A stretch of DNA of 64,000 nt from an uncultured virus (IMG/VR IMGVR_UViG_2875733747_000004) (IMGVR_UViG_2875733747_000004); one strand, 5' to 3'. Counted from the first letter of the stretch, positions 3,133 to 64,000 are shown. Notes: generated by a model not told the origin, from the sequence alone. A program made the numbers and translations.

Positions 3133-3336
3133 TTAGTATACAGCTAGTTTTTCTAATTGTTCTTTAACTTGAATTAAGTTTGACCGTATTAGAGAGGCAG
3201 ATTGATCCATCGTTTGAATTGCTTGTCCTTCATTTTCGTTCAAGCCATTACAAACAACTTCAAACTGTTGTGCCATTTGATCAAGACGCGCATGAGCTTG
3301 TGTGTTTAAAATAAACATATCGTCATAATGTGATGG
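3133..3336 (-). pseudogene. 3' remnant of the chromosomal gene interrupted by the prophage
   Basis: Begins with PSHYDDMF, the peptide that also appears near the end of ORF 63025-63912; the att core encodes it. Confidence 0.85.
3312..3336. repeat. Prophage att core, lysin-side junction (attR)
   Basis: TAAACATATCGTCATAATGTGATGG, 24/25 identical to 63069-63093; matches the Sa2int core as recalled. Confidence 0.92.
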
Positions 3337-3429
3337 CGAATAGATAATTCGTCGTTGTATACAAACGTATAAAAACCTTGTCATATCAACGGTTTTGGCA
3401 TTTTTAAACCTCTGTGTTTTCCACGCATG

Positions 3430-3467
3430 TTTGCCCTTATTTAAATAATTTGCCCTTTTTTCGCCCC
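3430..3467. promoter_or_regulatory. Putative integrase arm-type sites
   Basis: TTTGCCCTT at 3430 and 3449, TTCGCCCC at 3460; the same motif occurs twice at 62991-63008 near the other att. Confidence 0.6.
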
Positions 3468-3606
3468 GAAAAAAAAACACAAAAAAATAACCACACTCCT
3501 AAATTAATAGGTGGTGTGGTTTTGTTGATTGTAGGGGTATAAAAATAACCGCATTATTAAAGATACGGTTACTCTGTTATCTGTAAATATAATAGTAGTT
3601 TAAAAA

Positions 3607-3678
3607 TTAGTCGTTATTGTTAGTTCTTTTTTTATCTGATTCTTTTGTTTCTCCTAATTCGCAAACAGGACTCCACAT
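3607..3678 (-). CDS. Candidate 23-aa small ORF MWSPVCELGETKESDKKRTNNND
   Basis: AAAGGAG RBS 9 nt before ATG; terminator-like hairpins follow at ~3490-3575. Confidence 0.35.
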   Translation of the reverse strand: MWSPVCELGETKESDKKRTNNND

Positions 3679-3724
3679 AAAAATCAACTCCTTTATATAC
3701 CATAATGATACTATATTTTCTAGT

Positions 3725-4561
3725 TTATTTCAATTTTTCAGTTTTTAAAAATGAGTTTCTGTTTTTATTTATACGCTTTTCTGTTTTCTTTTTAAATTTT
3801 ATCTTTTTGTTATTCCATTCATTGTAAAATTCTATTAAATTAACATAAAATTTTTCATGCCCTATTTTATTTGTTGATGAGATATCAATGTAAAGACTCA
3901 ATATTGTTTTTAAATAGATTTGATGCAACGACTGATAAACCGTATTACTATCTGCTATATTATTGGTAAAATGCATAGAAAAATATTCTAATTTATTCAT
4001 GCAATATATATGGGTTTCATTATACTTCTTAATGAGTGTATTTATACCTTGCAATACGTCATTACTTTTAATAACAATTTCTTTTTCACCTGTCGAAAAA
4101 GTCCACTGTTTATCTCCTATATTTTCTTTAATTGTTTTCTTGTTGTCAAATTCTAAAATTATAGCCCGTAAACACTCTTCTTTATAATTCTCGTTCTTGA
4201 AAGTACGAAGCAAAATTTTTATAAATTCGGTATTGGTGACTTTTTTATAAGTGTGATATTTTGCAATCTCTTTATCAGTAAAGACTGTTCTTAGTTCGTG
4301 ATTATCAAAACTTAAATTCATCTTATTCTCTAATTCATTAATTTTATCTTGCAAACCAACATTTTCTAAAATTTTCTTGTTTATCTCCCCTATATCAAAA
4401 CTCCTTTTCGAAATTAATTTTGAAAACTCGTCTGCCATTTCAACAGCCTTTTCTTTCCTTTTATACCTTTTGTTAAATTTATGAACCACCGTTGCAGCAT
4501 AATACGATATCCCACCAGATAAAATAGATGATATTATCGGTATGTATATATCACCTTTCAT
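3725..4561 (-). CDS. Moron: 278-aa protein with N-terminal TM helix and DUF4760-like C-terminus; candidate anti-phage protein
   Basis: RBS GAGGTGG before MKGDIY; hydrophobic IYIPIISSILSGGISYYAA; C-terminal MNKLEYF...IAD...VYQ...FYNEW pattern; AT-rich; lysogenic-conversion position. Confidence 0.6.
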   Translation of the reverse strand: MKGDIYIPIISSILSGGISYYAATVVHKFNKRYKRKEKAVEMADEFSKLISKRSFDIGEINKKILENVGLQDKINELENKMNLSFDNHELRTVFTDKEIAKYHTYKKVTNTEFIKILLRTFKNENYKEECLRAIILEFDNKKTIKENIGDKQWTFSTGEKEIVIKSNDVLQGINTLIKKYNETHIYCMNKLEYFSMHFTNNIADSNTVYQSLHQIYLKTILSLYIDISSTNKIGHEKFYVNLIEFYNEWNNKKIKFKKKTEKRINKNRNSFLKTEKLK

Positions 4562-4640
4562 ATTTCCACCTCTTTTAACACAATTAAGTATTATGATACA
4601 CAACTTGCGCAAAAAGATGTAGACAGAACATAATGGCGAA

Positions 4641-4802
4641 CAAAAACAACCACCCAGTAACTAGTATGGGTGGCGTAGCGACTATAACAACTCTATGTTA
4701 TCAAGATATATGTATCGAGTGATGGCAAGGAAGAAGTCTCCTGCGGGACCAACAGTCAGATATATGGCCTCTGCCGGGCTATATAGTTCACTCCTACTAT
4801 AT
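4641..4802 (-). ncRNA. Candidate structured sRNA (~160 nt), unnamed
   Basis: Extended -10 TGTTATACT at 4810-4818; GC-rich multi-helix core; intrinsic terminator GCCACCCA-N10-TGGGTGGT followed by a T-rich tail. Confidence 0.55.
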
Positions 4803-4818
4803 AAAAGTAAGTATAACA

Positions 4819-4969
4819 TAAAAAGCACCCCGTAAACTGTTATACGGGAATGCTAAAGTCATATATACTACGGGGAGTAGTATGAAAACTATGCTCTCTA
4901 TCGTAAGAAAAAACACCCAGTGACATGCTTGGGTGAACAAGGATAGATGTAAATAGTTGATGCATGTGT
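4819..4969 (-). ncRNA. sprX: SprX (RsaOR)-like sRNA
   Basis: Starts ACACATGCATCAACTATTTACATC; three hairpins with a C-rich loop; ends GGGGTGCTTTTT; extended -10 TGTTATGAT upstream. Confidence 0.85.
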
Positions 4970-5013
4970 AACACATCATAACAAAAAACTAGCCCGAAGG
5001 CTAGCTATAACAT

Positions 5014-5141
5014 AAAAAAATAGGCAAGTACCGAAGTACCTGCCAGTTACGCACATTTAAATCTTGAGAGTAATGTTAAAAAGTGTATAGGAATATTAAC
5101 ATCCATCCAAATAGTTATTTAATAACTGTAAGATTCCCTAT
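5014..5141 (-). ncRNA. sprY: SprY-like sRNA
   Basis: ~128 nt between amidase and sprX, as recalled for phi12; terminator GGCAGGTAC-TTCG-GTACTTGCC-T run. Confidence 0.7.
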
Positions 5142-5176
5142 AATTAATGTAGCAAAATTTTTATTCTAAGTAAATA

Positions 5177-6631
5177 CTAAATCGTGCTAAACTTACCAAA
5201 ACTACTTATTCTATTACCTGCCTTGTCTACCTCTCCTGTCGCTATATAACGACGTTGTCCACTATTAGCAATATAAGTAATCCATCTATAGCCATTGATG
5301 CAATATGCGCCGTCATATTTAATTGTTGCGTTATTAGGTAATACACCTGTAATTCTTGAATTAGTTGAATAGCCGTCCCTTACGTTATTACCTTTAACAT
5401 TGGCAACTGTGTAATAACCAGTCTCTTTTTTATACGGTACATTGTTTTTATCAAGTGTATAACCTGCTGGCACTGGTGGATTTTTTTGGTTTTTAGCTGA
5501 TGTTTTAACATTACCAGCTACCAAACCACCTATAGGCTTACCATGAATTGCACCGGCTATTAATTTAGAATACAAGTCATAGTTTTTCTTAATCCAATCC
5601 ATATCATTTTTATTAGTAATAAAACCTAATTCAGATAAACGATAGTTTATATTTATTTCTGCTGATACATTAACGTTTAGTAAATCATTACGAGGTGTTA
5701 CACCTCTTATTTGTCCTAAGTTATTTTTAATAACATCTTGTATACTTTTATCAATAGTATCTGCATTGAATTGACTTGAAATAATAACATGCCCACCACT
5801 TGCACTTTCTCCTGCTGCGTCTAAATGAATCTCTAGAACAATGTCATACCCCTGTGATTTAACCCAATATAAGCCATAATCTTTATTATTTCCTACATTA
5901 ACACCGTAAGCAGTATCTTGATACATATCTTGTGATTGACTTGAGCCACCATATAATGCAACTTCGTGACCTGCATGTCTTAAATACTTAGCGATATTTG
6001 GTGTTATATATTTACGGATAAAATCACGTTCATTTGTTCCGTTTCCGACTGCTCCAGGATCGTTATAACCATGACCGGCTACAAGCATAATTTTTTTAGG
6101 TTTAATTACTGCTTGCTTTTTGGCAGTTGCTTGCTTAATAACGCTTTTAGCTTTATCTCCAACACTTACTTTATCTGGGAAATTTAATCTAATAAAATAC
6201 ATTGGGTCATCGTAATAATGAACATGTCTTGTAACGGTTTCGGGACCCCAACCAGGTTGCGCAACGCCATTTGTCCAACCTTTACCATTCCAATTTTGGC
6301 CAAACGATGTGAAAGTGTTTAGATTAGCGCTCTCAACAATTTCAACATGTCCAGCTCCGCCACCATACTTTGACGGGAAAACGACAATGTCCAACTTTTG
6401 CGGTAAAAAGCTATCATAGTTTTTAATTATTTGCCCGTATTTTTCAATCCTTGCTTTATTATCAAATGGAATATTATAAGCGTATAAACCTTGTAACCTT
6501 TCGCCTGTTGCTATCATAAAAAACATATTTGCGTAATCGTAACACTGAAATCCATAAAACAAATCAGGATTGAACTGCTTCCCTAATGAATTATCAAACC
6601 ATTTTTCTGCTTGGTTTTTTGTTATCAACAT
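5177..6631 (-). CDS. Endolysin (CHAP + amidase_3 + SH3b)
   Basis: QCYDY/GHV CHAP motifs, AGHG...EIHLD amidase motifs, C-terminal SH3b. Confidence 0.95.
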   Translation of the reverse strand: MLITKNQAEKWFDNSLGKQFNPDLFYGFQCYDYANMFFMIATGERLQGLYAYNIPFDNKARIEKYGQIIKNYDSFLPQKLDIVVFPSKYGGGAGHVEIVESANLNTFTSFGQNWNGKGWTNGVAQPGWGPETVTRHVHYYDDPMYFIRLNFPDKVSVGDKAKSVIKQATAKKQAVIKPKKIMLVAGHGYNDPGAVGNGTNERDFIRKYITPNIAKYLRHAGHEVALYGGSSQSQDMYQDTAYGVNVGNNKDYGLYWVKSQGYDIVLEIHLDAAGESASGGHVIISSQFNADTIDKSIQDVIKNNLGQIRGVTPRNDLLNVNVSAEININYRLSELGFITNKNDMDWIKKNYDLYSKLIAGAIHGKPIGGLVAGNVKTSAKNQKNPPVPAGYTLDKNNVPYKKETGYYTVANVKGNNVRDGYSTNSRITGVLPNNATIKYDGAYCINGYRWITYIANSGQRRYIATGEVDKAGNRISSFGKFSTI

Positions 6632-6641
6632 TGGTCAACAC

Positions 6642-6944
6642 CTACCCTAAATCATTTGTGTCGTTCATATTCGTAGGTGTCATTACTTCTTTAATTGGCG
6701 CTTGCCCTGTTGCTTTTCTATACTTGTTTTCAGCTTTATATTTCTTTAGCTTTTGATTTGCCCATTTACCTTCTTGAGATGTTGGATTATCTTTATATGT
6801 AGTATATAAAGCAACAACTGTTAAGATAATCGATGAAACACTTTCTTCATCTACTGGTATCGGACTTATACCTTTATTCGCTAAAAACTGATTGACTAAT
6901 GCTAAGATCAATACGATGTATCTTGTTATTACTTTTGCATCCAT
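6642..6944 (-). CDS. Phage holin (SPP1-like), 100 aa
   Basis: Two TM segments, KDNPTS motif, directly before the lysin; start at MDAKVIT with GGAG RBS. Confidence 0.92.
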   Translation of the reverse strand: MDAKVITRYIVLILALVNQFLANKGISPIPVDEESVSSIILTVVALYTTYKDNPTSQEGKWANQKLKKYKAENKYRKATGQAPIKEVMTPTNMNDTNDLG

Positions 6945-6966
6945 TTGTTTGCTCCTTTTATCCAAA

Positions 6967-6993
6967 ATAAAAAGCCAGTGCCGAAGCACTGAC
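6967..6993 (-). terminator. Intrinsic terminator upstream of holin
   Basis: CAGTGC-TTCG-GCACTG followed by a T run. Confidence 0.7.
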
Positions 6994-7002
6994 TCTTAAC
7001 TA

Positions 7003-7065
7003 TTACTTACACTTACTAAACCAGAAACACGACCAAAAGCTATATCCTAAAATTCCCTTAAGCAT
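7003..7065 (-). CDS. 20-aa hydrophobic peptide MLKGILGYSFWSCFWFSKCK
   Basis: Perfect RBS AAGGAGGTG 6 nt before ATG; followed by a terminator. Confidence 0.55.
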   Translation of the reverse strand: MLKGILGYSFWSCFWFSKCK

Positions 7066-7079
7066 GGTAATCACCTCCT

Positions 7080-7379
7080 TTAAATGCCAAAAATAGTTTT
7101 TAACAAGGCTATAACAAATGTACTTAGAATCGTCCCTATTAATCCTAGAATCCACATCTTGATGTCTCTAATATTTTTAGCATTTTTCTCTTTATTTTTT
7201 TCATCTTCTTCTTTGTCACGCCTTAGTTCTTCGAAATTTCTATCTAACTTGTCATAAATTTTTTCTTGCGTTCTCAGACTGTCTTCTATTCTGTCGAATT
7301 TTTCAAACATAGTCTTATCATTTTCTTCTAATCGCGTTAAACGCCAATCTTGTTCGTGTCGTTTGGTAAATCCAAACAT
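7080..7379 (-). CDS. DUF2951-like coiled-coil/TM protein
   Basis: Coiled coil plus C-terminal TM; usual position before holin. Confidence 0.8.
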   Translation of the reverse strand: MFGFTKRHEQDWRLTRLEENDKTMFEKFDRIEDSLRTQEKIYDKLDRNFEELRRDKEEDEKNKEKNAKNIRDIKMWILGLIGTILSTFVIALLKTIFGI

Positions 7380-7424
7380 TACACCACCCACTTTATTCAA
7401 ATTAAAAAGCCATAAGATTATAAC

Positions 7425-7589
7425 CTATGACTCTAGATTTTCTGGATACTTTTCTCCTGTAATAATTGCATATTCCTCTTTATCTATAACTTCCATATCT
7501 ACATACCACGCTATATCTTCTTTACTATATTCTTTCAATTGATACCATGTTTTAATATCTTCGAATGTTGGTGAAATTAATTTAAGCAT
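7425..7589 (-). CDS. XkdX-family protein (54 aa)
   Basis: MLKLISPTFEDIKTWY...IDKEEYAIITGEKY motif; manually translated. Confidence 0.8.
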   Translation of the reverse strand: MLKLISPTFEDIKTWYQLKEYSKEDIAWYVDMEVIDKEEYAIITGEKYPENLES

Positions 7590-7971
7590 TTTCAGTCTCT
7601 CCTTTAACCTCTTCTAATTTTTTATTAAGTGTCACAAGTTGTTTTGCCATTAGTGCATTTTGCTTATTAACTTGCATCGATAACTTTGTACTTTGAACAA
7701 CTTGTTTCTGCATACTAGCAACCATTTTTCGTAAGATGTCATCAGAAGCGACTGTGTTTTGTTCTTCACTGTCAATCTGTTGATGCAAGTCATCTTTTTC
7801 TTCTGAATAATCTTCGTTAAAAACTATTTCCCCATTTGAATATTTAAAGGCTTTAGGTCTAAAAACTTGAGAGAAATTTTCTGGTAAATTTTCAATATCA
7901 ATACCTTCTTCAAAGCCACCAATGATAGCGTATGAAATTATCTCATTACGCTTGTTAACTAATATTTGCAT
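7582..7971 (-). CDS. DUF2977-like tail-region protein
   Basis: ORF track; conserved staphylococcal phage gene. Confidence 0.75.
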   Translation of the reverse strand: MQILVNKRNEIISYAIIGGFEEGIDIENLPENFSQVFRPKAFKYSNGEIVFNEDYSEEKDDLHQQIDSEEQNTVASDDILRKMVASMQKQVVQSTKLSMQVNKQNALMAKQLVTLNKKLEEVKGETENA

Positions 7972-9437
7972 TATTTTCTCACTCCTATAATTTTGTTAAT
8001 TGTCCCTCTATTTGCGTTCGCACCAGAGCCTCTTTGACTTCCTAAGTCGAAATAGACATCGTTTGATATAGTTAAAGATGTACGACTAGATTTAGTTAAT
8101 CCAAACTCATAAACACCTCCACCATTTCCATCACCATCTGGAAGATTTGAGGGATTCAATGAAATCTTTCCTCCTCCAAAAGGACTGCCAAACTCTGTAA
8201 AGTCACCACCTGGAAAAGTCCCATAAAAAATTAATAAAATAAATTGGTCTAAACTCTCATTTAAGTACAATGTAGAGCCCACACCATTTGCTGTTCCATC
8301 AAAAATAACCGAATACCTTTTATTAAACTTGTCATCTGCGTATAATTTAGCGTTACTTTCGGCCATATTAGCTTTTGATTGGGCACTTTGAACAGTTTCA
8401 AAAGGTGTATTGTAATCATTAATAGCTAATTCTGACCACTCAGACCATGAACCCGCTTCTTTTCTTTTAACAAATACTTTATTTGTACCGTTCGGTCGAT
8501 AAGTCATACGCTTGTAATCTGAAGTTACTACTAAATATTCGACAGTACCGTTAGTACTAACACCTCTTGGATAATTTATAGCTTGCGAAACATAAATAAA
8601 TTGGGTTGAATCACCTATTCTTTGTTCTGGATTATTAAAATCAAATCCAGTAATCTGCATTATCTTACCATCATCTTTAGTAATCTTAGCTTTTTGCCAA
8701 TTTGAAGTAGAACCACTTGTGACTAAACCACCACTATTCACTGACTGCTTGAAGGCTTCATGTTTCTCATCCATATATCGCTTTTGCTCATCGAATGTTC
8801 TTGAATATGCTTGCGCTTTATTTTCCAAATCAGATATATGGCTATTAGCAAGTTGCTTTAATTCATCTATACTTGAAGATTTTGCTATTTGAATATCTGA
8901 TAGACCTTTTTCTTTAGCTTTTTCAATCAGACTCGCATAATCTTCACCATTTTTTATAGCCTCGTCCATTGCTTTCGCACGATCCATAATAGTTTTTTCT
9001 AATTCCTGAAATTCAACAATATAGTGTAATTTTGTTTCAGATGGAATCATGCTAAACAAACTTTTTTCAACGTTAAATGTGATAGTTCTCTCGACAACTA
9101 CCACGTCTGAATTACCTAATTCTGCAACCGAAACTTGAGCTTGATAACTTCCATCTCGTTTAATTACATCATTAGGTAATTGAAATTTTAAAATACCTTT
9201 AAATGGATCTAATATTTCTAGTGGAGCAACTACCATGACTCCTTTACCTCGAATCGCTATTCGTGCTTTGATATTTTCTTCACTCAATAATAACGGTTGA
9301 TTATTTTTAGTGATATTAAAAAGAAGAACAGAAGAATCACTCTCTCCTGTTCTAAAAGTTATATCTAGATTTGAAATATTTCCATAATGCGCTGTGTTTT
9401 CTAAATTTATAGCTACAGATTTCTCTAAATTACTCAT
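7971..9437 (-). CDS. BppU-family baseplate upper protein/fibre
   Basis: N-terminal BppU-like domain, coiled coil, C-terminal fibre domains; start MSNLEK overlaps the upstream stop. Confidence 0.8.
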   Translation of the reverse strand: MSNLEKSVAINLENTAHYGNISNLDITFRTGESDSSVLLFNITKNNQPLLLSEENIKARIAIRGKGVMVVAPLEILDPFKGILKFQLPNDVIKRDGSYQAQVSVAELGNSDVVVVERTITFNVEKSLFSMIPSETKLHYIVEFQELEKTIMDRAKAMDEAIKNGEDYASLIEKAKEKGLSDIQIAKSSSIDELKQLANSHISDLENKAQAYSRTFDEQKRYMDEKHEAFKQSVNSGGLVTSGSTSNWQKAKITKDDGKIMQITGFDFNNPEQRIGDSTQFIYVSQAINYPRGVSTNGTVEYLVVTSDYKRMTYRPNGTNKVFVKRKEAGSWSEWSELAINDYNTPFETVQSAQSKANMAESNAKLYADDKFNKRYSVIFDGTANGVGSTLYLNESLDQFILLIFYGTFPGGDFTEFGSPFGGGKISLNPSNLPDGDGNGGGVYEFGLTKSSRTSLTISNDVYFDLGSQRGSGANANRGTINKIIGVRK

Positions 9438-11347
9438 TAACTTATAATTCTCCCTTCGTGTAAAGTCCATGGCCCTGAACTTGTTTTACTATCATAATTT
9501 TTCAATAGTATCTCAGCAGATGCTGTAACACTATTACGAACTAGCCTATGAACAAAGCCACCTGTGTTTGAAGCTTCTACATATAAGTTCCAACCAGCTA
9601 CCCCTTTACGTTCAGTTGGAAAATCTGTAAAACGTTTTGTATCATCCGTAGTTAAATAAAACGACATGCCTACTATGTTAATATCTGACATTTTTGTGAT
9701 GAATGAAGGTACTCTCTCCCATTTACCACTATTTTTAGGCACATAATTCCAGTCCGAAATGTCTCCAGTTCTTCCAGAAAGCACCCTTTCAAAAGTCATC
9801 ATATTCCTTGCATAACTATTACGCGTCAATATCTGAATTACATCACCGCCAGTTTGTGGTGGCTTAACTTCCAAGAACCAACCTGCATCACGCCATTCTC
9901 TTGGTAATGGGAAATCATCGATTTGAACTGTATGATCAGTGTATAAATAGTAAAGACCTGGCTCTGTTAACATCCCAAGATTCTTAAGTTTATCAGGCCT
10001 CATTGGTAAAGGTTTAACTCTACCACCTGTGTCACTCATGATAAAAGGAACGCCTCTTGAGTGAAGTATTTCTAAAATACCTCTTTGCCCAATCATGAAA
10101 ATACGATGTGTTCTATTTCCATCACCACCGACAGTAACACCTAGCATCAAAGCTTTTTTACCACTATCTTTGTCATAGTATATTTGCAAACCTTCTGCTT
10201 CCGCAAATTCGCCAGGAAATGAATCTAGTGTTCCACCATAGTCAGCATTAACCTGATACGCTTCTTCTCCTGTTTCTAAATCGAAAGCCGTTAAATAGTT
10301 TCTATTATTTGGATTACTGTCTCCTGTATACCAATACAAGTATTTTTCATCAAAAGTCACACCCTGCATTGGTTGGGTTTCGTTTGTTAGTCTCATAGGG
10401 ATACTGATTTTATGCAAAACTTTATCAATATTTTTATCAACATCGTCTAAACTTCTTATCTCTATATAATTCATTGAGTTTTCAAGTTCCCACTGACTTC
10501 TAGGTCTCTCAATTCTGTATAGAATTTTATTTTCTTTTTCATTTATGACAGGGGTGATGTAGGGTTTTTCTGGGTGTCCTGTAAATACATCTTGCATACC
10601 ATACTTGCCATAGCTAATTTCCACATTAGGCGTATACTTGAAACGAACTAATGTATTCTCATTATTACCATTTAAGATAAAACTATAAATCCATAACTCA
10701 TCATCAATATATCTATAACCGTTATGTGTACCATGACCCCCACCTACAATCAATGAGCTGTCTATAAATTGACCATTAGGTCTTAGACGACTTAGCATAT
10801 AGCCATTATTTCTAGCTTGTGTCATGTATACTATGCCTGTTCTATTATCAAACCAGAAGGATTGCATTACTGCATTTGTAAGAGGTGCAAGTTCTGTCAC
10901 AAATAAAAATTCTTGCTTATCAGGTTCAAAACGATACTCGATATCAAGAATTTCTTGTTTGGTCTTATTTAATTCTCTTATAGTTTCCTCTTTATTAATT
11001 TGAGTTTTGGTTTCCCAATCGTCTAAATGTTCTTTTAATGTGTCAAAGGTTTCGCCGTTTACATTAACTCGAGCTTGAACAATCTCATTAGCACTGTTAT
11101 TACGTGGTGCCACAACAAGTGCGTTAATTTGACTTTGTAAAGATTTGTTTACTGCTGCTTGCGATCTACCATTATAATAAATTTGCTCAGCGAAGTGTTG
11201 AATTGTTTTAGCTTTCTGATGCAACTTAAACTCTGTTGTCAAGCCAAGCGCAAATTGCTCTATTCTTTGTAAGTTTTGTATTTCCTTAGCTCTATAATCT
11301 CGACCTGCTAAAGCTCCCAAATCCTTTATTAAATACAAATTTTCCAT
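9437..11347 (-). CDS. Receptor-binding protein (minor structural protein)
   Basis: Stem plus beta-propeller-like region (MQSFWFD, GGGHG, EAEG) and two C-terminal tower repeats. Confidence 0.85.
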   Translation of the reverse strand: MENLYLIKDLGALAGRDYRAKEIQNLQRIEQFALGLTTEFKLHQKAKTIQHFAEQIYYNGRSQAAVNKSLQSQINALVVAPRNNSANEIVQARVNVNGETFDTLKEHLDDWETKTQINKEETIRELNKTKQEILDIEYRFEPDKQEFLFVTELAPLTNAVMQSFWFDNRTGIVYMTQARNNGYMLSRLRPNGQFIDSSLIVGGGHGTHNGYRYIDDELWIYSFILNGNNENTLVRFKYTPNVEISYGKYGMQDVFTGHPEKPYITPVINEKENKILYRIERPRSQWELENSMNYIEIRSLDDVDKNIDKVLHKISIPMRLTNETQPMQGVTFDEKYLYWYTGDSNPNNRNYLTAFDLETGEEAYQVNADYGGTLDSFPGEFAEAEGLQIYYDKDSGKKALMLGVTVGGDGNRTHRIFMIGQRGILEILHSRGVPFIMSDTGGRVKPLPMRPDKLKNLGMLTEPGLYYLYTDHTVQIDDFPLPREWRDAGWFLEVKPPQTGGDVIQILTRNSYARNMMTFERVLSGRTGDISDWNYVPKNSGKWERVPSFITKMSDINIVGMSFYLTTDDTKRFTDFPTERKGVAGWNLYVEASNTGGFVHRLVRNSVTASAEILLKNYDSKTSSGPWTLHEGRIIS

Positions 11348-11362
11348 AATGCACCTTCCTTT

Positions 11363-13236: not shown

Positions 13237-13244
13237 TAAATCAC

Positions 13245-49235: not shown

Positions 49236-49237
49236 CA

Positions 49238-50180: not shown

Positions 50181-50184
50181 TTTC

Positions 50185-51464: not shown

Positions 51465-51466
51465 TG

Positions 51467-51673: not shown

Positions 51674-51686
51674 TGTTTCCGCCCTT

Positions 51687-51935: not shown

Positions 51936-51943
51936 CACTCCTT

Positions 51944-52144: not shown

Positions 52145-52146
52145 CG

Positions 52147-52990: not shown

Positions 52991-53002
52991 GCAATCACAC
53001 TC

Positions 53003-54964: not shown

Positions 54965-55023
54965 ATTCTTGACACCTCAATTTCTTTAAAATTAAAGTGG
55001 GGCTAAAAACCCCACCTATTGAC

Positions 55024-55581: not shown

Positions 55582-55606
55582 GTTTATATACCGTCCTTTT
55601 TAATTT

Positions 55607-56773: not shown

Positions 56774-57132
56774 GCATTAATTCTCGCCTTCATGAAATCA
56801 ACAATTTTTTCATAATGCTCTTCTTTGATAGTAGATAGCTTATCCGCACCAAGTTCGTTAAGTTTATTTCTAAATTCTTTCTTATCAGAAGTGTCTGCTT
56901 TTTTAAGGAACTCTTTTCCTACTGATAAAACATAATCTTTAGTCAAATCAGCAGAAGTTTCCTTAACTTCTTCAATTGATTCCAGTTGAGCTGTTTCTTC
57001 TTTTGGCATTGGTGCTTCTTTAACTTTCTCTTGTACAATTGATGAATCTACAGTTGACAGTTCAGTGTTTAACACACGTAAATTCTTATTTAATAGTTTT
57101 AATTCTTCAAAAATATCTTCTAATACTGCCAT
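56770..57132 (-). CDS. Phage hypothetical protein
   Basis: ORF track; GGAGG RBS. Confidence 0.75.
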   Translation of the reverse strand: MAVLEDIFEELKLLNKNLRVLNTELSTVDSSIVQEKVKEAPMPKEETAQLESIEEVKETSADLTKDYVLSVGKEFLKKADTSDKKEFRNKLNELGADKLSTIKEEHYEKIVDFMKARINA

Positions 57133-57146
57133 TGATTAACTCCTCC

Positions 57147-57470
57147 TTAAAATTGGTTAGCTAGACGAATCATTAACTTGATACGTTCTTCTATTTCTCT
57201 AGGGTCATCACTTTGTTCATTTAATCTTGCTAACAATTCAAATTGTTCTTCTAAAATTTCTTTTTTACGTTCGACTACACTTAAATGCAATTGCGATTCA
57301 ATAACACGCCAGATACCCCAACTTTCCATTTCAATCTTTCCTTTTTTCTTAAGTTTTGAAAGAGTGGATTTTGCATGTGTTTTAGATATCCCAAAATTTT
57401 CAACAACACCATCAGAATTGAAATTGTCATATGTTGCAAAATGTGATAGTATTTTTTGTTGTAAGGTCAT
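57147..57470 (-). CDS. Winged-HTH-like phage protein
   Basis: FGISKTHAKSTLSKLKKKGKI. Confidence 0.7.
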   Translation of the reverse strand: MTLQQKILSHFATYDNFNSDGVVENFGISKTHAKSTLSKLKKKGKIEMESWGIWRVIESQLHLSVVERKKEILEEQFELLARLNEQSDDPREIEERIKLMIRLANQF

Positions 57471-57548
57471 ATTAATAACTCCTTATATAATTATTTAAGA
57501 CAATTGCTCATCTTGCACTGTTACTTGCTCCAACAAGTAGCAGTTTCT

Positions 57549-57710
57549 TTATTCTTCATAAAAGTATTCCTTATAAAATGTGAATGTTGCGATACTTGCG
57601 AATCCCGCAATTGACCATGCTGTAGTGAAGTATAGAAACGGCATGAGTACAATCGCTAAGACTGTGAAGCACAGTACTGCTATTAAGTAGCTTTTATAAA
57701 TGTTGCTCAT
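57549..57710 (-). CDS. DUF1270-like membrane protein (53 aa)
   Basis: MSNIYKSYLIAVLCFTVLAIVLMPFLYFTTAW...; manually translated. Confidence 0.8.
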   Translation of the reverse strand: MSNIYKSYLIAVLCFTVLAIVLMPFLYFTTAWSIAGFASIATFTFYKEYFYEE

Positions 57711-57721
57711 TTAATATCCTC

Positions 57722-57985
57722 CTAATACCATTTTTTATGCTTTCTGATCAAATACTCTTCCAATTTAGAAATATTAATCAGAGTGCCTGTTGGTGAATAA
57801 TCAATGTATAAATTTTCTACACCTAAATTATCTTTGCGGTAATATTTCAACCAGTTGTATACTGTACTTCTACATACTCCAAACAATTGATGGATTTGTG
57901 TAGGTGTTGCGTATAACTTTTTCACAAATTTTTCTTCGCCTCTATATGTGTTTTCTGGTGTTGGTGGTACTATGATTTTTGGCAT
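57722..57985 (-). CDS. HTH DNA-binding protein (excisionase-like)
   Basis: IHQLFGVCRSTVYNWL HTH. Confidence 0.7.
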   Translation of the reverse strand: MPKIIVPPTPENTYRGEEKFVKKLYATPTQIHQLFGVCRSTVYNWLKYYRKDNLGVENLYIDYSPTGTLINISKLEEYLIRKHKKWY

Positions 57986-58009
57986 CTCTATCACTCCTTT
58001 CGATAAATG

Positions 58010-58225
58010 TTAAATTTTGCTATTATTCGCTCTGTATTGAAGTTCTCTATCTAATACATAGAAGACTTTGTTTATTTCTAAGTAGCTGTAATAACCTTTT
58101 TTAATACTTTCTAATATTTCCTTTCTTAGTCGACCTTCATTTTCTGTTAAAGATTCTACTGGCGCGTGATCTCTTCTGAAAACCCTTGGTATGCTGATGT
58201 CTAACCCTTCTGATTTTTTGTTCAT
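58010..58225 (-). CDS. Phage hypothetical protein
   Basis: AAGGTGG RBS. Confidence 0.6.
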   Translation of the reverse strand: MNKKSEGLDISIPRVFRRDHAPVESLTENEGRLRKEILESIKKGYYSYLEINKVFYVLDRELQYRANNSKI

Positions 58226-58280
58226 TTGTTGTTCCACCTTTCGTGTATAATGTTGTTATCAACCTAAGGAGGTGATAAGT

Positions 58281-58511
58281 ATGCATAAGAGATTGCTCAC
58301 TCAATATTTAGATAAAGAAAACGTTACTTCTTTAGATTTACATTTAATTAATGGTGAAGTTATTAAAGTACAAGAACATATAAAAGATGCTGAAAGCAAA
58401 ACTCTACACATCATTCATCCAAAAGATAGAGTTGTCAGTTTAGATCATGTTTTGTATTTCGACATTAACGTTAAAGGTGAAAAGAATAACGATAGTCCTT
58501 ACCCATCTTAA
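58281..58511 (+). CDS. Counter-oriented hypothetical protein inside the early operon
   Basis: TATAAT at 58246 and AAGGAGGTG RBS. Confidence 0.7.
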   Translation: MHKRLLTQYLDKENVTSLDLHLINGEVIKVQEHIKDAESKTLHIIHPKDRVVSLDHVLYFDINVKGEKNNDSPYPS

Positions 58512-58684
58512 AATCCATAGTGCTTATAGTTATTTGCTATTTGTTGACAGTTATAACTGGCAAGTCCTACCTTGTCAGCTTGGTAACTGTATTGATTATT
58601 TACTTCATTTACTAATCGATTCCATTCGTCTCTTGGTACGTCTTCAAGAAGTAAAAGAATCATCTTTAATTTTTCTTCGTTCAT
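58508..58684 (-). CDS. Phage hypothetical protein (58 aa, MNEEKLKMILLLLEDVP...)
   Basis: AAAGGAGG RBS; manually translated. Confidence 0.65.
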   Translation of the reverse strand: MNEEKLKMILLLLEDVPRDEWNRLVNEVNNQYSYQADKVGLASYNCQQIANNYKHYGF

Positions 58685-58772
58685 TTGTTGTTCCTCCTTT
58701 TAAGATCTTTGTTTATGTCCATTTGTTACATTACCTAAAAGTTATAAAAAGTTATACGAAGGTCAAAAAAAT

Positions 58773-58964
58773 TTAGACCTTTATCTGGTCTACCTCAATA
58801 TCATATAACTTTGCTAAAGCGTAAACTGTAACATTACTTAAATTAGTGTCATCCTTTTCCCAATGACCAACTGTCTTTGCATTGACGCCCAATATATCTG
58901 CTACTTCTTGCTGTTTCAAGTCCCTTACAAGTCTCCATTTTCTTACGGATAATTGTTCCGGCAT
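58773..58964 (-). CDS. cro: Cro-like XRE repressor
   Basis: QQEVADILGVNAKTVGHWE HTH; divergent from cI. Confidence 0.85.
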   Translation of the reverse strand: MPEQLSVRKWRLVRDLKQQEVADILGVNAKTVGHWEKDDTNLSNVTVYALAKLYDIEVDQIKV

Positions 58965-58987
58965 GTCGTCCACCTCCCTTTCACACG

Positions 58988-59074
58988 TATAACTTTATAT
59001 TACTTTGTATTACTTGTCAACAGATAAAGTTATATTTATTCATAAAAAGTTATAAAAAGTATTGTAAAGTAATG
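58988..59074. promoter_or_regulatory. cI/cro divergent promoter-operator region
   Basis: AAAGTTATA-like motifs at 10-bp spacing; also present at 58738 and 58748. Confidence 0.6.
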
Positions 59075-59124
59075 TCGGTTATGGTAAGTTAATATTACAT
59101 TAAGTAATATTAAAGGAGACAACT

Positions 59125-59454
59125 ATGGAGAATAATAAAGTCAGAAAAATTTTATCTGAAAACCTTCAAGAACTTATGAATGATAAAAATATTGATCAGA
59201 GAGAACTTGCTGAAGCTATTGGAGTTTCTCAACCTACAGTCTCCAATTGGATTCAACAAACTAAATATCCACGAATTAAAAGAATTCAACAACTTGCAGA
59301 TTACTTCAATGTACCGAAATCAAGAATTACTGAATCAAAAAAAGATATACATCAAGAAACAATTGCTGCTCATTTTGATAAAGAGGGATTAACTGAAGAA
59401 GAGATTGAAGAAGTAAATAGATTCATTGAATGGGTTAGAAATAGAGACAAATAA
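59125..59454 (+). CDS. CI/ImmR-like repressor (HTH only, no S24 domain)
   Basis: QRELAEAIGVSQPTVSNW; TIAAH motif typical of ImmA-cleaved repressors. Confidence 0.9.
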   Translation: MENNKVRKILSENLQELMNDKNIDQRELAEAIGVSQPTVSNWIQQTKYPRIKRIQQLADYFNVPKSRITESKKDIHQETIAAHFDKEGLTEEEIEEVNRFIEWVRNRDK

Positions 59455-59466
59455 AGGGTGTTTATA

Positions 59467-59928
59467 TTGGGATTATACGAAGAACTTTGCATAAATAACG
59501 AAAAAATAAAGATAGAAGAAACTGACCAGCTTCCAAATTTCCAACCTGGATGCTATATGAACGGAAAAATTTATATAAGGCGTAATTTATCAGAAGTACG
59601 TAAAGCAGAAGTGTTATATGAGGAACTTGCCCACCACAAGTTGACGTATGGCAACATTTTAGACCAATCAAAATGGATTAATAGAAAATTTGAAAATTAT
59701 GCACGTAGACATGGTTTTACTTCAGCTGTACCGCTACATGAAATTGTAGAAGCTCACAACTACGGTGTTCGTAATTTGTACGAGTTGTCAGAGTATCTGC
59801 AGTTGAGTGAATCATACATACTAGAAGCTATAGAACAATATAAAAAGATATATGGTATTGGAACTCACTATGGCGAGTATTCTATTACGTTTGAGCCGTT
59901 GAGAGTTTTTAAATATAAGGAAATATAA
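59467..59928 (+). CDS. ImmA/IrrE-family metallopeptidase (anti-repressor)
   Basis: YEELAHH...E..A motif directly after the repressor. Confidence 0.85.
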   Translation: MGLYEELCINNEKIKIEETDQLPNFQPGCYMNGKIYIRRNLSEVRKAEVLYEELAHHKLTYGNILDQSKWINRKFENYARRHGFTSAVPLHEIVEAHNYGVRNLYELSEYLQLSESYILEAIEQYKKIYGIGTHYGEYSITFEPLRVFKYKEI

Positions 59929-59945
59929 ACAAAGGAGAGATACAT

Positions 59946-60380
59946 ATGAAAAAAGTAATCGGACTGCTACTAGTAAGTACATTAGCTTTAACAGCTTGTG
60001 GTGAAAAAGAAAAACCAAAAAAAGAAGAAAATAAAAAGTCACAAACACAAAAACACAAAGGTAGCAAACCAAAAACGCAACAAGAAAAAATGAAAAAAGT
60101 TGAAGATAAAAATCCACCTAATAATAGCATACAAAATAATTCAAACAATCAAAACCAATCACAAAACAATCAACTTAATAATAATTCAGATCCATCTAAT
60201 AATACTCCTGCAAATATAAATGAAAACGATTCACAAAATACTAATTTAAATGATGAGTATGTCGTTTCGCCTGGCTGGACTAAAGATGAACAGGCTAAAG
60301 CTTTTGAAGAGTACAAAAAAGGAAAAGAAGAGGAAGCAAGAGCTGGTGCTAGCGCAGTACCAGGAGCCAATATTAACTAA
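59946..60380 (+). CDS. Lysogeny-module lipoprotein (possible superinfection exclusion)
   Basis: Lipobox LTAC; K/N/Q-rich linker. Confidence 0.75.
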   Translation: MKKVIGLLLVSTLALTACGEKEKPKKEENKKSQTQKHKGSKPKTQQEKMKKVEDKNPPNNSIQNNSNNQNQSQNNQLNNNSDPSNNTPANINENDSQNTNLNDEYVVSPGWTKDEQAKAFEEYKKGKEEEARAGASAVPGANIN

Positions 60381-60408
60381 TAAAACAATATAAGAAAGAA
60401 GAGCTAAT

Positions 60409-60804
60409 ATGGAAACAAATAAAACAATCGATTTAATGAATTATGTGAAATTTCCAAAAAGATACACAGAGGCAAAAGGCAAATTAGTTGCACAACCAAT
60501 AACTACTATAAATAGCGCAAGAAGAGTTGAAAATGAAGATATGACTGTTTGCTACATTTTAGATCAGGATGATGATGTAATGGACTTTATCTTTGACAGA
60601 GATATAATTACTGTTTACTGTCCTGAAAACGGAACTGCGACTGATGAATATTTTTGTGAAATTATATTTAACTCAGATGACACATTTACCCTAAAGCGAT
60701 TATCTAATTACGTTACCATTAAAGATAGAAGCTACCCAATGTCAAAAATAAATGACGTAAACATTACGGGCAAAGTCGTCAGATTATTTAGAGATTTTAA
60801 ATAA
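60409..60804 (+). CDS. Stand-alone degenerate S24/LexA C-terminal-like protein
   Basis: FTLKRL and VNITGKVV motifs. Confidence 0.55.
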   Translation: METNKTIDLMNYVKFPKRYTEAKGKLVAQPITTINSARRVENEDMTVCYILDQDDDVMDFIFDRDIITVYCPENGTATDEYFCEIIFNSDDTFTLKRLSNYVTIKDRSYPMSKINDVNITGKVVRLFRDFK

Positions 60805-60914
60805 ACTTGGCTTTAATTACGATTAAAAGTACCTATATAGCGTGACGAGAAAAAGGATTAAAAAAAATTCAAAAACGCCTACTAGTGTAGACGTTGAATG
60901 GTGGTGAGAATTTT

Positions 60915-61040
60915 ATGGCGGATAAAAACAAAAAACAAGAAGCTACCCGTAGTAACCCAATAAACAAAAGTTTTGAAAAGCCGGGTGCCAGCGAAAACTT
61001 AAAAAGCACTTTATCAGAAAAAGCTAAGAAAAAAGATTAA
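60915..61040 (+). CDS. 41-aa basic small ORF MADKNKKQEATRSNP...
   Basis: GGTGGTG RBS; manually translated. Confidence 0.45.
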   Translation: MADKNKKQEATRSNPINKSFEKPGASENLKSTLSEKAKKKD

Positions 61041-61651
61041 TATTCATTCATTAAATATAAATCCAATTTAATTTGTTGTTTAAGGTCTACAAGTGTATGT
61101 TTAATATACAATTCATCGTTTGACGCTAAATCAGATACTTTGAAATCTTGTCGCTCAACCTCTAGTAAATCGAAATCGCTACCAGCTGAATTATAGGTTT
61201 TAAGTTCACCCTCTTCAATGATTCTGTTTTCAAAGTCTTTAATAACTATAAATACTGGTTTACCGTTGTTATTAAACAACTTGTCTCTTTTGTCTAATAA
61301 GCTTATACAATCCAAATTCATAAACTTTCTTGTTTCATTAATTAACCAGATAATGAATTTAACAATTAAAGGATTAAATACAAGCACTGTTAAAACAAAA
61401 ATAATTAGAAACCAAATATTTGCTTTTAGACCTGTAAGCAACTGAAGTAAACTCAAATTTTTTAAATCAACATTATTAAAAATTATAAAAGTATAAAACC
61501 ATATCAAACATGTTTCAATAGAAAAAATCAATAATACAGGAGTATTGATAATCTTGTTTTTTTCACTAACTAAACCTATCATTGTTAGATATTTATATGG
61601 TATGTAACCTAAAACTCCTGTAAGAAGAAGCGCCCCTAGAAATTGAGTCAT
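61037..61651 (-). CDS. Membrane protein divergent from integrase (OrfC-like)
   Basis: Three TM segments; AGGTG RBS. Confidence 0.75.
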   Translation of the reverse strand: MTQFLGALLLTGVLGYIPYKYLTMIGLVSEKNKIINTPVLLIFSIETCLIWFYTFIIFNNVDLKNLSLLQLLTGLKANIWFLIIFVLTVLVFNPLIVKFIIWLINETRKFMNLDCISLLDKRDKLFNNNGKPVFIVIKDFENRIIEEGELKTYNSAGSDFDLLEVERQDFKVSDLASNDELYIKHTLVDLKQQIKLDLYLMNEY

Positions 61652-61707
61652 CTTATCACCTACTTTTTATTTTATTATAACATATTTAGTACCTAGTACT
61701 AAATTTT

Positions 61708-61760
61708 GGGTAGCCCACCTACCCTTATTATTTTTTACAAATTTACAGAACGTACGTTCT
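61708..61760 (+). promoter_or_regulatory. Conserved int leader: SigH-associated element plus SOS-box-like palindrome
   Basis: GGGTAGCCCACCTACCCTTATTATTTTTT; AGAACGTACGTTCT at 61747-61760. Confidence 0.6.
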
Positions 61761-61776
61761 CTCAGGAGGTATAAAC

Positions 61777-62982
61777 ATGTGGATTGAAAAATTTAAAAAC
61801 AAAAATAACGAAACTAAATACAGATACTACGAGAAGTATAAAGATCCATACACAGATAAATGGAAGCGCGTAAGTGTTGTGTTGAACAAGAATACAAAAC
61901 AATCACAAAAAGAAGCAATGTTTCGTTTAGAAGAAAAAATAAAAGAAAAACTAAACAACAAGTCGTCAAGCGAATTAAAAACTTTGACTTTTCACGCGCT
62001 ATTAGATGAATGGCTTGAATATCATATAAAAACATCAGGTTCAAAGTTGACTACTCTTAATAATATAAAAATAAGAATTAGAAACATTAAACGATACAGC
62101 TCTGAGAACTTGCTTTTAAACAAACTAGATACAAAATATATGCAGATATTTATTAATAAATTATCAGATATCTATTCTCAAAATCAAGTAACCCGTCAAC
62201 TCGGAGATATGAAAGGAGCTATTAAATATGCAGTTAAATTTTACAATTATCCAAATGAATATTTGTTAACTAATGTCAAAATTCCTAAAAGAAGAAAAAC
62301 AATAGAGGATATCGAAAAAGATGAATCTAAAATGTACAACTATTTAGAAATGAACCAAGTCCTACAGATACGTGATCATATACTAAATGATAATAAGTTA
62401 CACAAGCGAAATCGCATTTTAATTGCCAGCATCTTAGAAGTACAGGCTTTAACTGGTATGCGCATAGGAGAACTACAAGCACTGCAGGAAAAAGATATAG
62501 ATTTATTAAACAAAACTATCAATATAACAGGTACAATTCACCGCATTAAATACGAGGAAGGATTCGGATACAAAGACACTACAAAGACTATAAGTTCAAA
62601 AAGAAGTATCAGCATCAATTCTAGAACCGTAGAAATTTTTAAAAAGATAATACTGGAAAACAAAATGTTGAAAAGATGGAATTCGAGCTATGTTGACAGA
62701 GGGTTCATATTCACAACAAAAAAAGGGAATCCTTTATGTAATAATCAAATCGCCGGTGTGCTTAAGAAAACTACAAAAGCTTTAAATATGAATAAGAAAG
62801 TTACCACGCACACATTTAGACATACACACATAACTTTATTAGTAGAAATGAATGTTTCTTTAAAAGCAATTATGAAAAGGGTAGGACATGTAGATGAAAA
62901 AACAACCATTCGCATATATACTCATGTAACTGAAAAAATGGATAGAGAACTAACTCAAAAACTCGAAAACATTCCAAGTTAG
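61777..62982 (+). CDS. int: Tyrosine integrase (Sa2int)
   Basis: TGMRIGE, HTFRH, VGH and IYTH catalytic motifs intact. Confidence 0.96.
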   Translation: MWIEKFKNKNNETKYRYYEKYKDPYTDKWKRVSVVLNKNTKQSQKEAMFRLEEKIKEKLNNKSSSELKTLTFHALLDEWLEYHIKTSGSKLTTLNNIKIRIRNIKRYSSENLLLNKLDTKYMQIFINKLSDIYSQNQVTRQLGDMKGAIKYAVKFYNYPNEYLLTNVKIPKRRKTIEDIEKDESKMYNYLEMNQVLQIRDHILNDNKLHKRNRILIASILEVQALTGMRIGELQALQEKDIDLLNKTINITGTIHRIKYEEGFGYKDTTKTISSKRSISINSRTVEIFKKIILENKMLKRWNSSYVDRGFIFTTKKGNPLCNNQIAGVLKKTTKALNMNKKVTTHTFRHTHITLLVEMNVSLKAIMKRVGHVDEKTTIRIYTHVTEKMDRELTQKLENIPS

Positions 62983-63024
62983 CTTAAATCTGCCCTTTTT
63001 TTGCCCTTATATTTTTTACAAGCT

Positions 63025-64000
63025 TTATAAAACGCTTGAGAACACTGGCGTTAAAGCTTTTCTTGAATTAAACATATCATCATAATGTGATGGTTCAAAT
63101 ATCATTTGTACAATCAAAGGCTTCATGTTCTTAACAATATCATCTAAATGGTTATCTAAAATTGGTGACACTGCTTTTAAATCATTAAGAAAAGGCTCCC
63201 ATTTGCCTAAAGTATTATCTAATTCTTCTAATTTAGTTTTAATATAATTACAAGTTACATTAGGAATCAGGGACAAAAATTCTTTCTTTTTTACATTTAA
63301 CATTTCAATTGCATGTCTTAAATTCTTACGTATTTTGGGAATTGTATTAATCAAATATTTTATTACATCGACAATTTTCGATGCATATTCATCATATATA
63401 CCTTGAACATAGTCTGCTATTTTTTTAATACCATCATCGATATGGTCTTTTAATATTTTCATTTTTCTTCCTAAATAATTAGAAGGTATAACTAGACCCT
63501 GTACCATATTTTCGCCGCTACAATTAATTTGAAAATTTCCATCTAAAATTGTTGCATCTTGTTGTTTCATAATACTTCTAATATCTGCAATTTGCCTACC
63601 ATAAATATCATTTTGATTTTTTATTTGGTCTATATTCTGTTTCACTACTTTCAAATGTTTCATCATTTCTTCAGATACTCCATCTCTGAAGTCGTGATCT
63701 ATATTTTTGAAAATTTCTAAAATTTCATTATCTATACTATCATACACTTTTTCTATAAAAGATTTTATACCTTTAAACAACTCATTAATTCTTTCTTTTA
63801 ATGCATCCAATGCAAAATCAGGTAATAAGTGTTTAACAGCACTAATACTTTCTATTGTTTCATCTGCAACTTCTTCAAGTGAGTTTATTTTACTAATTAA
63901 AGTTCTTTCCATTTCTTCTAACTGAAATAAGTTAATCTTATCCTTAAATCCTTCTGATAATTGTTTCTTTCTATCTGCAAAATTTTTATTTTCATTTTCT
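63025..64000 (-). pseudogene. 5' part of the interrupted chromosomal gene (SA1320-like, helical), fused to a short phage-encoded tail; starts beyond the window
   Basis: ...FEPSHYDDMF|NSRKALTPVFSSVL*; native continuation is ILNTQAH... at 3133-3311. Confidence 0.8.
63069..63093. repeat. Prophage att core, integrase-side junction (attL)
   Basis: TAAACATATCATCATAATGTGATGG. Confidence 0.92.

Follow-up and report, generated by a model that had tools for sequence, protein, structure and literature searches.

Organization of the locus

The window analyzed here is a 64,000-nucleotide stretch of DNA from an uncultured virus (IMG/VR IMGVR_UViG_2875733747_000004). This DNA is that of Staphylococcus aureus, and between two attachment (att) cores it holds an Sa2 prophage that is itself interrupted by a copy of ICE6013, an integrative and conjugative element (ICE). 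A sequence-only reading of the same stretch had placed the prophage at 3312..63093, recognized an ICE6013-like element splitting its SNF2 helicase gene, and proposed that the two elements, neither able to move alone, could be conjugated together as one unit excised by the phage integrase (Int). That interpretation is partly supported by our analysis: the anatomy of the composite was right, whereas the premise of an immobile ICE was not.

The match to phage DNA ends at 30734 and restarts at 45265. When both junctions were set against the uninterrupted helicase gene of phage phi12, the inserted element had the ends GGTGGTGT... and ...CACACTGCC and was flanked by a duplicated TAT, which places the ICE at 30734-45264 on the minus strand with a length of 14,531 bp. 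Its terminal inverted repeats (GGTGGTGT / GGCAGTGT) are alike at 6 of 8 positions and, together with the TAT duplication, are those of the ICE6013 family. The ICE6013 papers of 2009 and 2017 reportedly describe ends with short, imperfect inverted repeats and the duplication of 3 bp of target. The SNF2 helicase, 455 aa when intact in phage vB_SauS_690, is consequently encoded in two parts, the C-terminal one retaining the Helicase_C domain. The empty site in phi12, the TAT duplication, and the identity to ICE6013 described below bear out the proposed disruption. The features of the insertion are as follows.

30731..30733, unstranded: target-site duplication copy 1, TAT on the minus strand (against the phi12 empty site)
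30734..45264, minus strand: ICE6013, complete, cargo-bearing 14.5-kb type (identity to SAP077B and the G035 copy)
45265..45267, unstranded: target-site duplication copy 2 (against the phi12 empty site)
45255..45704, minus strand: N-terminal 146 codons of the SNF2 helicase, then 3 codons into the ICE end before a stop
29803-30639, minus strand: C-terminal 278 codons of the SNF2 helicase

Two other copies served as references. NC_013341.1 ("plasmid SAP077B") is a circular record of 13,342 bp in which the same two ends are joined via 3 bp, and its circular form and joined ends suggest that it is an ICE6013 circle; the window's ICE shares 96.9-99.4% nucleotide identity with it, as expected of a family member. 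The second reference, a 14,501-bp copy in genome G035, is 99.3% and 97.7% identical to the window's ICE, and has the same ends and an ATT 3-bp duplication. Given that its transposase parts are 99-100% identical to those of the window, G035 is apparently an S. aureus genome. The ICE lengthens the att-to-att distance by 32%, to 59,782 bp from the 45,248 bp that remain when it and one TAT are removed, in agreement with the sequence-only estimate of a rise from ~45.2 to ~59.8 kb.

These data suggest that a complete, ordinary ICE6013 transposed into a resident Sa2 cos prophage of the phi12/vB_SauS_690 type, at an AT-rich site within its SNF2-helicase gene, and did so recently in view of the near-absence of differences from a viable phage. 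Compared with known ICE6013, the ends, the 3-bp duplication, the two-open reading frame (ORF) IS30-like transposase, and the MobT, TcpA-like, VirB4, TcpC/D/E, and CHAP genes are all alike, and the sole difference is the insertion site inside a prophage helicase gene; novelty here is restricted to that site. Reported ICE6013 sites include chromosomal genes, intergenic sites, and a plasmid, with many sites in use (PMC7563843, PMC3175761). No prophage site was found in the accessible text of literature mentioning ICE6013, a set that did not cover the original ICE6013 descriptions. The locus thus adds one more insertion site for a promiscuous ICE and would be a natural case of an ICE reversibly locking a prophage that otherwise barely differs from a viable phage.

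Prophage type and expected effect of the insertion

The attP region of vB_SauS_690 (OM439667.1), the closest phage record, matches both prophage ends with a self-overlap of 25 bp. The att cores defined in this way, 3312-3336 and 63069-63093, coincide with the limits that had been proposed. A single att-core mismatch at 3322 (G in the window, A in vB_SauS_690) fits a hybrid att site. Window segments aligning to this phage are 3312-29027, 28879-30734, 45265-49608, 50177-62982, and 62983-63093. An Sa2 integrase is present with its att core at both ends, and an HNH endonuclease, TerS, and HK97-type TerL module, assigned to cos-type packaging in PMC9430571 and PMC5052747, is encoded. The minus strand carries the phage genes, with the early region at ~58 kb and the lysis genes at ~5 kb; the integrase and the repressor/metalloprotease pair (59125-59928) are on the plus strand. 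No excisionase was recognized near int among ORFs of at least 40 aa, and PADLOC gave no defense-system match for the phage accessory ORFs.

3312..3336, unstranded: att core at the lysis end, hybrid site (alignment to vB_SauS_690 attP)
3337..30733, minus strand: prophage arm 1 (Pfam and PHROG matches, phage alignments), with an accessory ORF (3725-4612), endolysin, holin, tail, head, portal, TerL, TerS, and HNH genes (Pfam/PHROG)
29353-29790, minus strand: RinA-like activator, 145 aa, in arm 1
45265..63068, no single strand given: prophage arm 2 (Pfam, PHROG, phage alignments), with VRR-NUC, VirE-like primase, dUTPase, PolA, DUF2800 nuclease, and single-stranded DNA-binding protein genes (Pfam/PHROG)
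59125-59454 and 59458-59928: lysogeny module in arm 2, a helix-turn-helix (HTH) repressor and a metalloprotease (PHROG 87)
61777-62982, plus strand: Sa2 integrase, in arm 2
63069..63093, unstranded: att core at the integrase end (sequence and alignment to vB_SauS_690)

Divergence from viable phages was minimal. Across the 26-kb structural arm (4380-30734), arm 1 differs from phi12 by 5 substitutions and no indels (99.98% identity), and from vB_SauS_690 arm 1 differs by 7 substitutions and 1 intergenic indel. All arms together differ from vB_SauS_690 by 13 substitutions, two 1-bp indels, and one swap in the dUTPase region (at least 99.9% identity); one indel is intergenic near att, the other lies at the edge of the swap, and neither is in a structural gene. 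The lysogeny module (58200-61000) is 100% identical to that of vB_SauS_690, and int, the att cores, and the repressor switch, previously described as intact-looking, are indeed near-identical to those of this phage. vB_SauS_690 was induced with mitomycin C, plaque-purified on RN4220, and carries an Sa2 integrase and a cos-type TerL (PMC9430571). The window prophage has the attP core of phi12 and vB_SauS_690 (Triavirus, Sa2 integrase, cos packaging with HNH-TerS-TerL) but differs from both in carrying an ICE in the helicase gene. Unlike vB_SauS_690, it has the phi12-type allele of the dUTPase region (49609-50176) and, unlike phi12, it has a lysogeny module of the vB_SauS_690 type.

phi12 is a cos phage, and strict size limits apply to cos-packaged units (PMC5052747), consistent with the earlier statement that cos phages tolerate little oversize DNA. 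With the ICE in place, the cos-delimited unit is 132% of normal, and 14.5 kb of ICE DNA with terminator-like hairpins stands between the early genes and both the RinA-like activator and the late genes. Because the helicase is split, the cos unit oversized, and the RinA-like and late genes cut off in this manner, the phage is most likely disabled as a virus while the ICE is present, and infectious particles would not be expected. Induction and plaque formation by the ICE-bearing prophage are doubtful, given the split helicase and the 132% length.

A two-frame transposase conserved across the ICE6013 family

The recombinase of the ICE is an IS30-like DDE transposase encoded as two overlapping frames, orf1 (HTH) and orf2 (DDE).

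31471..31974, minus strand: transposase orf1, HTH DNA-binding part, 167 aa (Pfam HTH_32/HTH_38; NCBIfam IS30 positions 3-123)
30954..31493, minus strand: transposase orf2, IS30-type DDE catalytic part, +1 frame relative to orf1, open for 179 codons (NCBIfam IS30 positions 125-266)
31485-31471, minus strand: candidate +1 shift site at the orf1 end, CTC AAA AAG TAT TAA

The transposase had been described as frameshifted, and two frames with a +1 offset are present as stated; they do not amount to a lesion, however, for the layout is universal in the family. There are no indels between the window and SAP077B over the whole transposase gene, and G035, the S. aureus species-representative genome, has a copy in which the transposase is likewise split over two frames. 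Relatives of orf1 (35 matches among 126 candidates, down to 51% identity) were all ~165-180 aa long, and in an alignment of the window's orf1 with 11 full-length proteins from these matches (51-72% identical) the 12 stops fall only a few residues apart, just past a conserved YR(P/L/S). A search of longer proteins (294-2000 aa; 1117 candidates) yielded no fused orf1 relative. Fused relatives of orf2, among the best 120 of 976 matches, were named IS30 transposases of other genera with no more than 47% identity. On full-length IS30 proteins, orf1 ends at residue 150 and orf2 begins at residue 153, and orf1 through its residue 161 and orf2 from its residue 5 abut; no part of the enzyme is lacking, and shifting by +1 within the short overlap would restore the canonical IS30 spacing.

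The element occurred in 7 of the 113 Staphylococcaceae species genomes searched, one of which held 5 copies. With orf1 alone as the query, no related loci were recovered from genome contigs, while an alignment-based repeat of this search yielded 4. At all 11 loci compared (L009-L012, L016-L022; 7 species), orf2 was in the +1 frame of orf1. An AAA Lys codon was found 0-2 codons before the orf1 stop in 9/9 distinct loci, a count that omits L019 and L021 as likely duplicates of L018 and L020 on the basis of near-identical match rows, and the orf1 ends were AAA TGA, AAA TAA, AAA TAG, AAA GCG TGA, AAA ACG TGA, and AAA AAG TAT TAA. The stretch from the upstream +1-frame stop to the first catalytic Asp contains no ATG, GTG, or TTG in 6 of 10 loci, where a complete enzyme then needs both frames to be joined. 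The exact orf1 protein of the window is encoded on at least 1000 public contigs.

Judged by this conservation, the two-frame transposase is the family norm and not a lesion private to this copy. Synthesis of the complete enzyme most likely depends on a programmed +1 shift, or on RNA slippage, at the Lys AAA codon shortly before the orf1 stop. Two-ORF transposases of IS1 and IS3 use -1 shifts on A6G-type heptamers, and prfB uses programmed +1 frameshifting. As in these systems, two overlapping frames would be joined into a full enzyme in ICE6013. A further likeness is that the candidate shift site lies near the 0-frame stop, a stop that in several ICE6013-family loci comes directly after AAA. 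The ICE6013 family differs from IS1 and IS3 in that the shift needed is +1 and the enzyme is of the IS30 type. A single literature search turned up no case of +1 frameshifting in an IS30-type enzyme. No mention of a frameshift in the ICE6013 transposase was found in the accessible literature, which did not cover the original ICE6013 descriptions; both this frameshift and an insertion of ICE6013 in a prophage may already be in print in those papers. A more useful by-product of this analysis is the conserved split of the transposase. The split looks like a recoding signal, and the two-frame gene should not count as a pseudogene when the mobility of an ICE6013 copy is judged.

Transfer genes, cargo, and the oriT-like region

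The ICE encodes a MobT (Rep_trans) relaxase, a TcpA-type coupling protein, and a mating-pair formation (MPF) gene set of the MPF-FATA class, traits of the superfamily described in PMC7563843.

32083..37374, minus strand: lipoprotein (DUF4467), 196-aa ORF, CHAP/glucosaminidase hydrolase, CD3337/EF1877 membrane protein, FtsK/TcpA-like coupling protein (Pfam/NCBIfam)
37375..38568, unstranded: 1.2-kb cargo, in the G035 copy, absent from SAP077B
38569..43966, minus strand: VirB4/TcpF-like ATPase, TcpE, TcpD, TcpC, MobT (Rep_trans) relaxase (Pfam/NCBIfam)
44007..44119, minus strand: oriT-like region, G+C-rich, bracketed by a 9-bp inverted repeat (44119-44111 and 44015-44007; read from sequence)
44141..45221, minus strand: DUF961 protein (44457-44777), 100-aa ORF without a family match (44141-44443), 97-aa ORF at the left end of the ICE

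The MobT relaxase, coupling protein, VirB4/TcpF, TcpC/D/E, and CHAP hydrolase frames are open in the window, as claimed for the transfer ORFs at the outset, and ICE frames of at least 60 aa match both references in length, except for a 61-aa frame and the lipoprotein gene (139 vs 134). All ICE genes apart from a 163-aa cargo ORF are on the minus strand, the same as the phage early and late genes, so the reported co-orientation with the phage early operon holds. Since the origin of transfer (oriT) lies upstream of the MobT gene in this superfamily (PMC7563843), we regard the G+C-rich stretch upstream of the relaxase gene as a putative oriT. A 24-base near-perfect palindrome with two 11-base arms (43983-44006, minus strand) stands directly before the MobT ribosome-binding site and is possibly an operator or attenuator.

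The cargo comprises two small minus-strand ORFs and the plus-strand 163-aa ORF (37905-38396), which runs opposite to all other ICE genes and has the region's best promoter-like site (37704-37732) and its own terminator-like hairpin (38531-38561). On the minus strand, a terminator-like hairpin (37389-37363) lies between virB4 and the coupling-protein gene. The cargo returned no Pfam, NCBIfam, or PADLOC family, with only one weak, sub-threshold Pfam match. In the window and G035 copies it matches that of a published 14.4-kb variant, ICE6013-MSHR1132 (14,419 bp), which has two extra small membrane-protein genes (PMC3175761), and the window's ICE is of this same 14.5-kb type.

Inferred mobility of the ICE and its consequence for the phage

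Self-excision is the behavior expected of this ICE from its relatives, because every family member, the apparently excised circular copy included, has the two-frame transposase. The layout of the window's transposase equals that of excised and multicopy relatives, which argues against an ICE unable to excise itself. Excision is reportedly required for ICE6013 conjugation (Sansevere 2017). The sequence-only reading cited a need for an uninterrupted transposase in excision, but the interruption in that 2017 study was reportedly a Tn552 insertion, not the two-frame split. The interruption reported for the ICE6013 transposase gene in the 2009 paper was this Tn552 insertion, according to PMC7563843. 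Loss of ICE6013 has been described from a USA300 FPR3757 stock (PMC4197248) and among sequential clinical isolates (PMC6090636). One sequencing run (X1), compared with window positions 29000-47000, had amplicon-like coverage confined to the two ICE ends, and very deep reads joined 45259-45265 to 30734-30740 via many different 2-8-letter inserts, the pattern expected of deep-sequenced ICE6013 circle junctions from many insertion sites.

We therefore favor a nested arrangement in which the ICE in the prophage splits the helicase gene and makes the cos unit oversize, so that the phage would be locked as a virus, while the ICE would leave as a circle closed by a 3-bp coupling sequence and conjugate alone. 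Because the coupling sequence and the target duplication are both 3 bp, excision should restore the helicase gene, and would leave a 45.2-kb prophage nearly identical to a plaque-forming phage. The nested pair would then be a reversible lock on the phage and not a new 60-kb conjugative unit. The earlier claim that neither partner can move alone would thus hold in part: the phage probably cannot move as a virion, given the split helicase and 132% length, but for the ICE the claim is unsupported, the two-frame transposase being the family norm.

Several points weigh against this arrangement. Excision of the window's ICE is drawn from relatives and not from source-strain reads, and the standing of SAP077B as a genuine excised circle rests on the form of the record and its joined ends. 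The case for the +1 frameshift is one of conservation only; no stimulatory element was identified at the candidate shift site, and the overlap reads AAAAAG in the window and AAAAAA in SAP077B, the AAAAAG version being common to the window, G035, S. intermedius, and S. agnetis. In the cargo variant, a terminator-like hairpin separates virB4 from the coupling-protein gene.

Some of the same observations could be taken to mean that both elements are locked and that the composite is decaying, vertically inherited cargo, with a silent or poorly expressed ICE and a defective prophage. The hairpin within the transfer operon, the want of direct evidence for excision of this copy, and a junction that looks unique to this genome in all searches would fit such an outcome, but the ICE has no private lesion and its frames equal those of the references, the cargo variant also occurs in a species-representative genome, and the phage arms are only 13 substitutions and two 1-bp indels from a viable phage, with neither indel in a structural gene. 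So few differences in the phage arms point to a very recent event with no decay yet, and we consider a dead end unlikely.

Searches for the junction and transfer of the composite

If the composite spread as a unit, the phage-ICE junction might recur elsewhere, and the sequence-only reading had called for a search of other genomes. The junction was found in none of the other collections searched, whole S. aureus population assemblies not having been scanned as DNA. The ICE was present in none of 50,697 phage records, a 36-base word spanning the junction had no exact match in viral or metagenome contigs, and the N-terminal helicase remnant specific to the junction, tried with 8 possible starts, was absent from a collection of 15 billion proteins. 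None of the four sequencing runs compared with the window contained the junction, the run search having sampled 2 words of a 75-base junction query, of which 11 runs had one, so that it says little on frequency. Runs X3 and X4 contained neither the phage nor the ICE, and X5 contained both apart, with one contig skipping from 30730 to 45265 and the ICE having other flanks. With the nearest provirus record (G001), the match was confined to the phage side. The 278-aa C-terminal helicase remnant is encoded on 4 public contigs, which may or may not carry the same insertion.

Two candidates were set aside. Protein P0174, a 145-aa member of a helicase cluster found on at least 1000 contigs, was treated as a clustering artifact and not as a junction protein, because its length and its listing as window-encoded fit the 145-aa RinA-like ORF at 29353-29790, a match made without alignment. 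Phage 2PHSA1 (OL690335.1, 59,779 bp) is a phage joined to an S. aureus pathogenicity island (SaPI) and has no ICE, its similar length being a coincidence. This circular record combines a Triavirus genome with an SaPI-like island that has its own integrase, and is probably a co-assembly.

Transfer of the whole composite was the proposal of the sequence-only reading: the ICE cannot excise and the phage cannot be packaged, so Int, with an excisionase, would cut out a 59.8-kb circle, the relaxase and type IV secretion system of the ICE would transfer it, and Int would insert it at the Sa2 attB of the recipient. Both att cores and the integrase gene are nearly identical to those of a viable phage, and an Int-excised circle would, as was argued, physically carry the oriT-like region, MobT relaxase, coupling protein, and full MPF gene set. 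The ICE is also co-oriented with the phage early operon, and no minus-strand terminator-like site was detected between 46136 and 40349; moreover, prophage spread via conjugative megaplasmids has been proposed (PMC12934698). Yet the motivation for the proposal is gone, since the transposase is not broken, and the family-wide two-frame layout contradicts the premise of a dead enzyme. No excisionase gene was identified, and no second occurrence of the junction was found in the collections searched. Excision by Int and Xis would normally come with induction, when lysis genes are on in the donor, and a repressor-free recipient would face a lysis-lysogeny decision and zygotic induction. We found nothing to support transfer of a 60-kb composite through Int and the ICE secretion system, and regard it as highly improbable. 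The fuller version, a 60-kb conjugative prophage in which induction leads to Int excision, read-through from the early operon turns on ICE transfer, and lysogeny is established at Sa2 attB, is just as hard to credit. Were it true, a tailed phage would gain a virion-free, receptor-independent route into new hosts, and conjugation of the composite would offer prophages and their cargo a new way across phage-receptor barriers in S. aureus.

Co-orientation of the ICE with the phage early genes is also compatible with mobilization in cis, akin to transfer from high-frequency-of-recombination (Hfr) strains, in which the integrated ICE would nick at oriT, drag prophage DNA into recipients, and allow it to recombine with a resident related prophage, a process that read-through on induction might boost. 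The window itself gives no evidence of this, and conjugation of ICE6013 reportedly needs excision. Flanking DNA is mobilized by the transposase-type ICE TnGBS2, and the same has been proposed for ICE6013 (PMC4036114), but an integrative and mobilizable element (IME) carried inside an ICE from this superfamily failed to be mobilized in cis (PMC7563843). Such transfer from the window's locus thus appears very unlikely.

A reversible lock of the phage by the ICE would have parallels in other nested elements. As with Tn552 in the ICE6013 transposase gene and an IME_oriT in the oriT of an ICE, one element sits inside an essential gene or site of another, and the host element is expected to work again only once the guest leaves (PMC7563843). 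Here, in contrast to those cases, the ICE is the guest and a phage the host. The nested pair in the IME_oriT case was not seen to transfer as one unit (PMC7563843). Prophages on conjugative megaplasmids (bioRxiv 2026, PMC12934698) embody the same idea as composite transfer, namely prophage spread by conjugation and not by the phage's own virion; the vehicle there is a plasmid of >300 kb carrying the prophage, whereas the vehicle proposed here would be a 14.5-kb ICE inside the prophage, with excision via the phage integrase.

Additional features of the prophage and its flank

The phi12 allele of the dUTPase region (49609-50176) within an otherwise vB_SauS_690-like arm constitutes a small mosaic swap. 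The dUTPase gene acts as an SaPI derepressor. In the lysogeny region, a short HTH repressor followed by a metalloprotease (59125-59928) stands in place of phi12 positions 2196-5595, an order that resembles the ImmR/ImmA arrangement, unlike the cI-like repressor of phi12.

Two reference records had local irregularities relative to the window. At ~19821-20117, the vB_SauS_690 record has a tandem 149-bp duplication beside the HNH gene, of which the window has no copy, and this is possibly an assembly overlap near the cos region. The phi12 record (AF424782.1) differs from window positions 46556-46867 by 13 single-base indels clustered in the VirE-like primase gene; these are likely errors of an old 2002 record, as the window's primase frame (815 aa) is open and identical to that of phage 47 across this region. 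Outside the prophage, three tandem DUF1672 lipoprotein paralogs (304, 312, and 305 aa; window 1-3042) adjoin the Sa2 attachment site.

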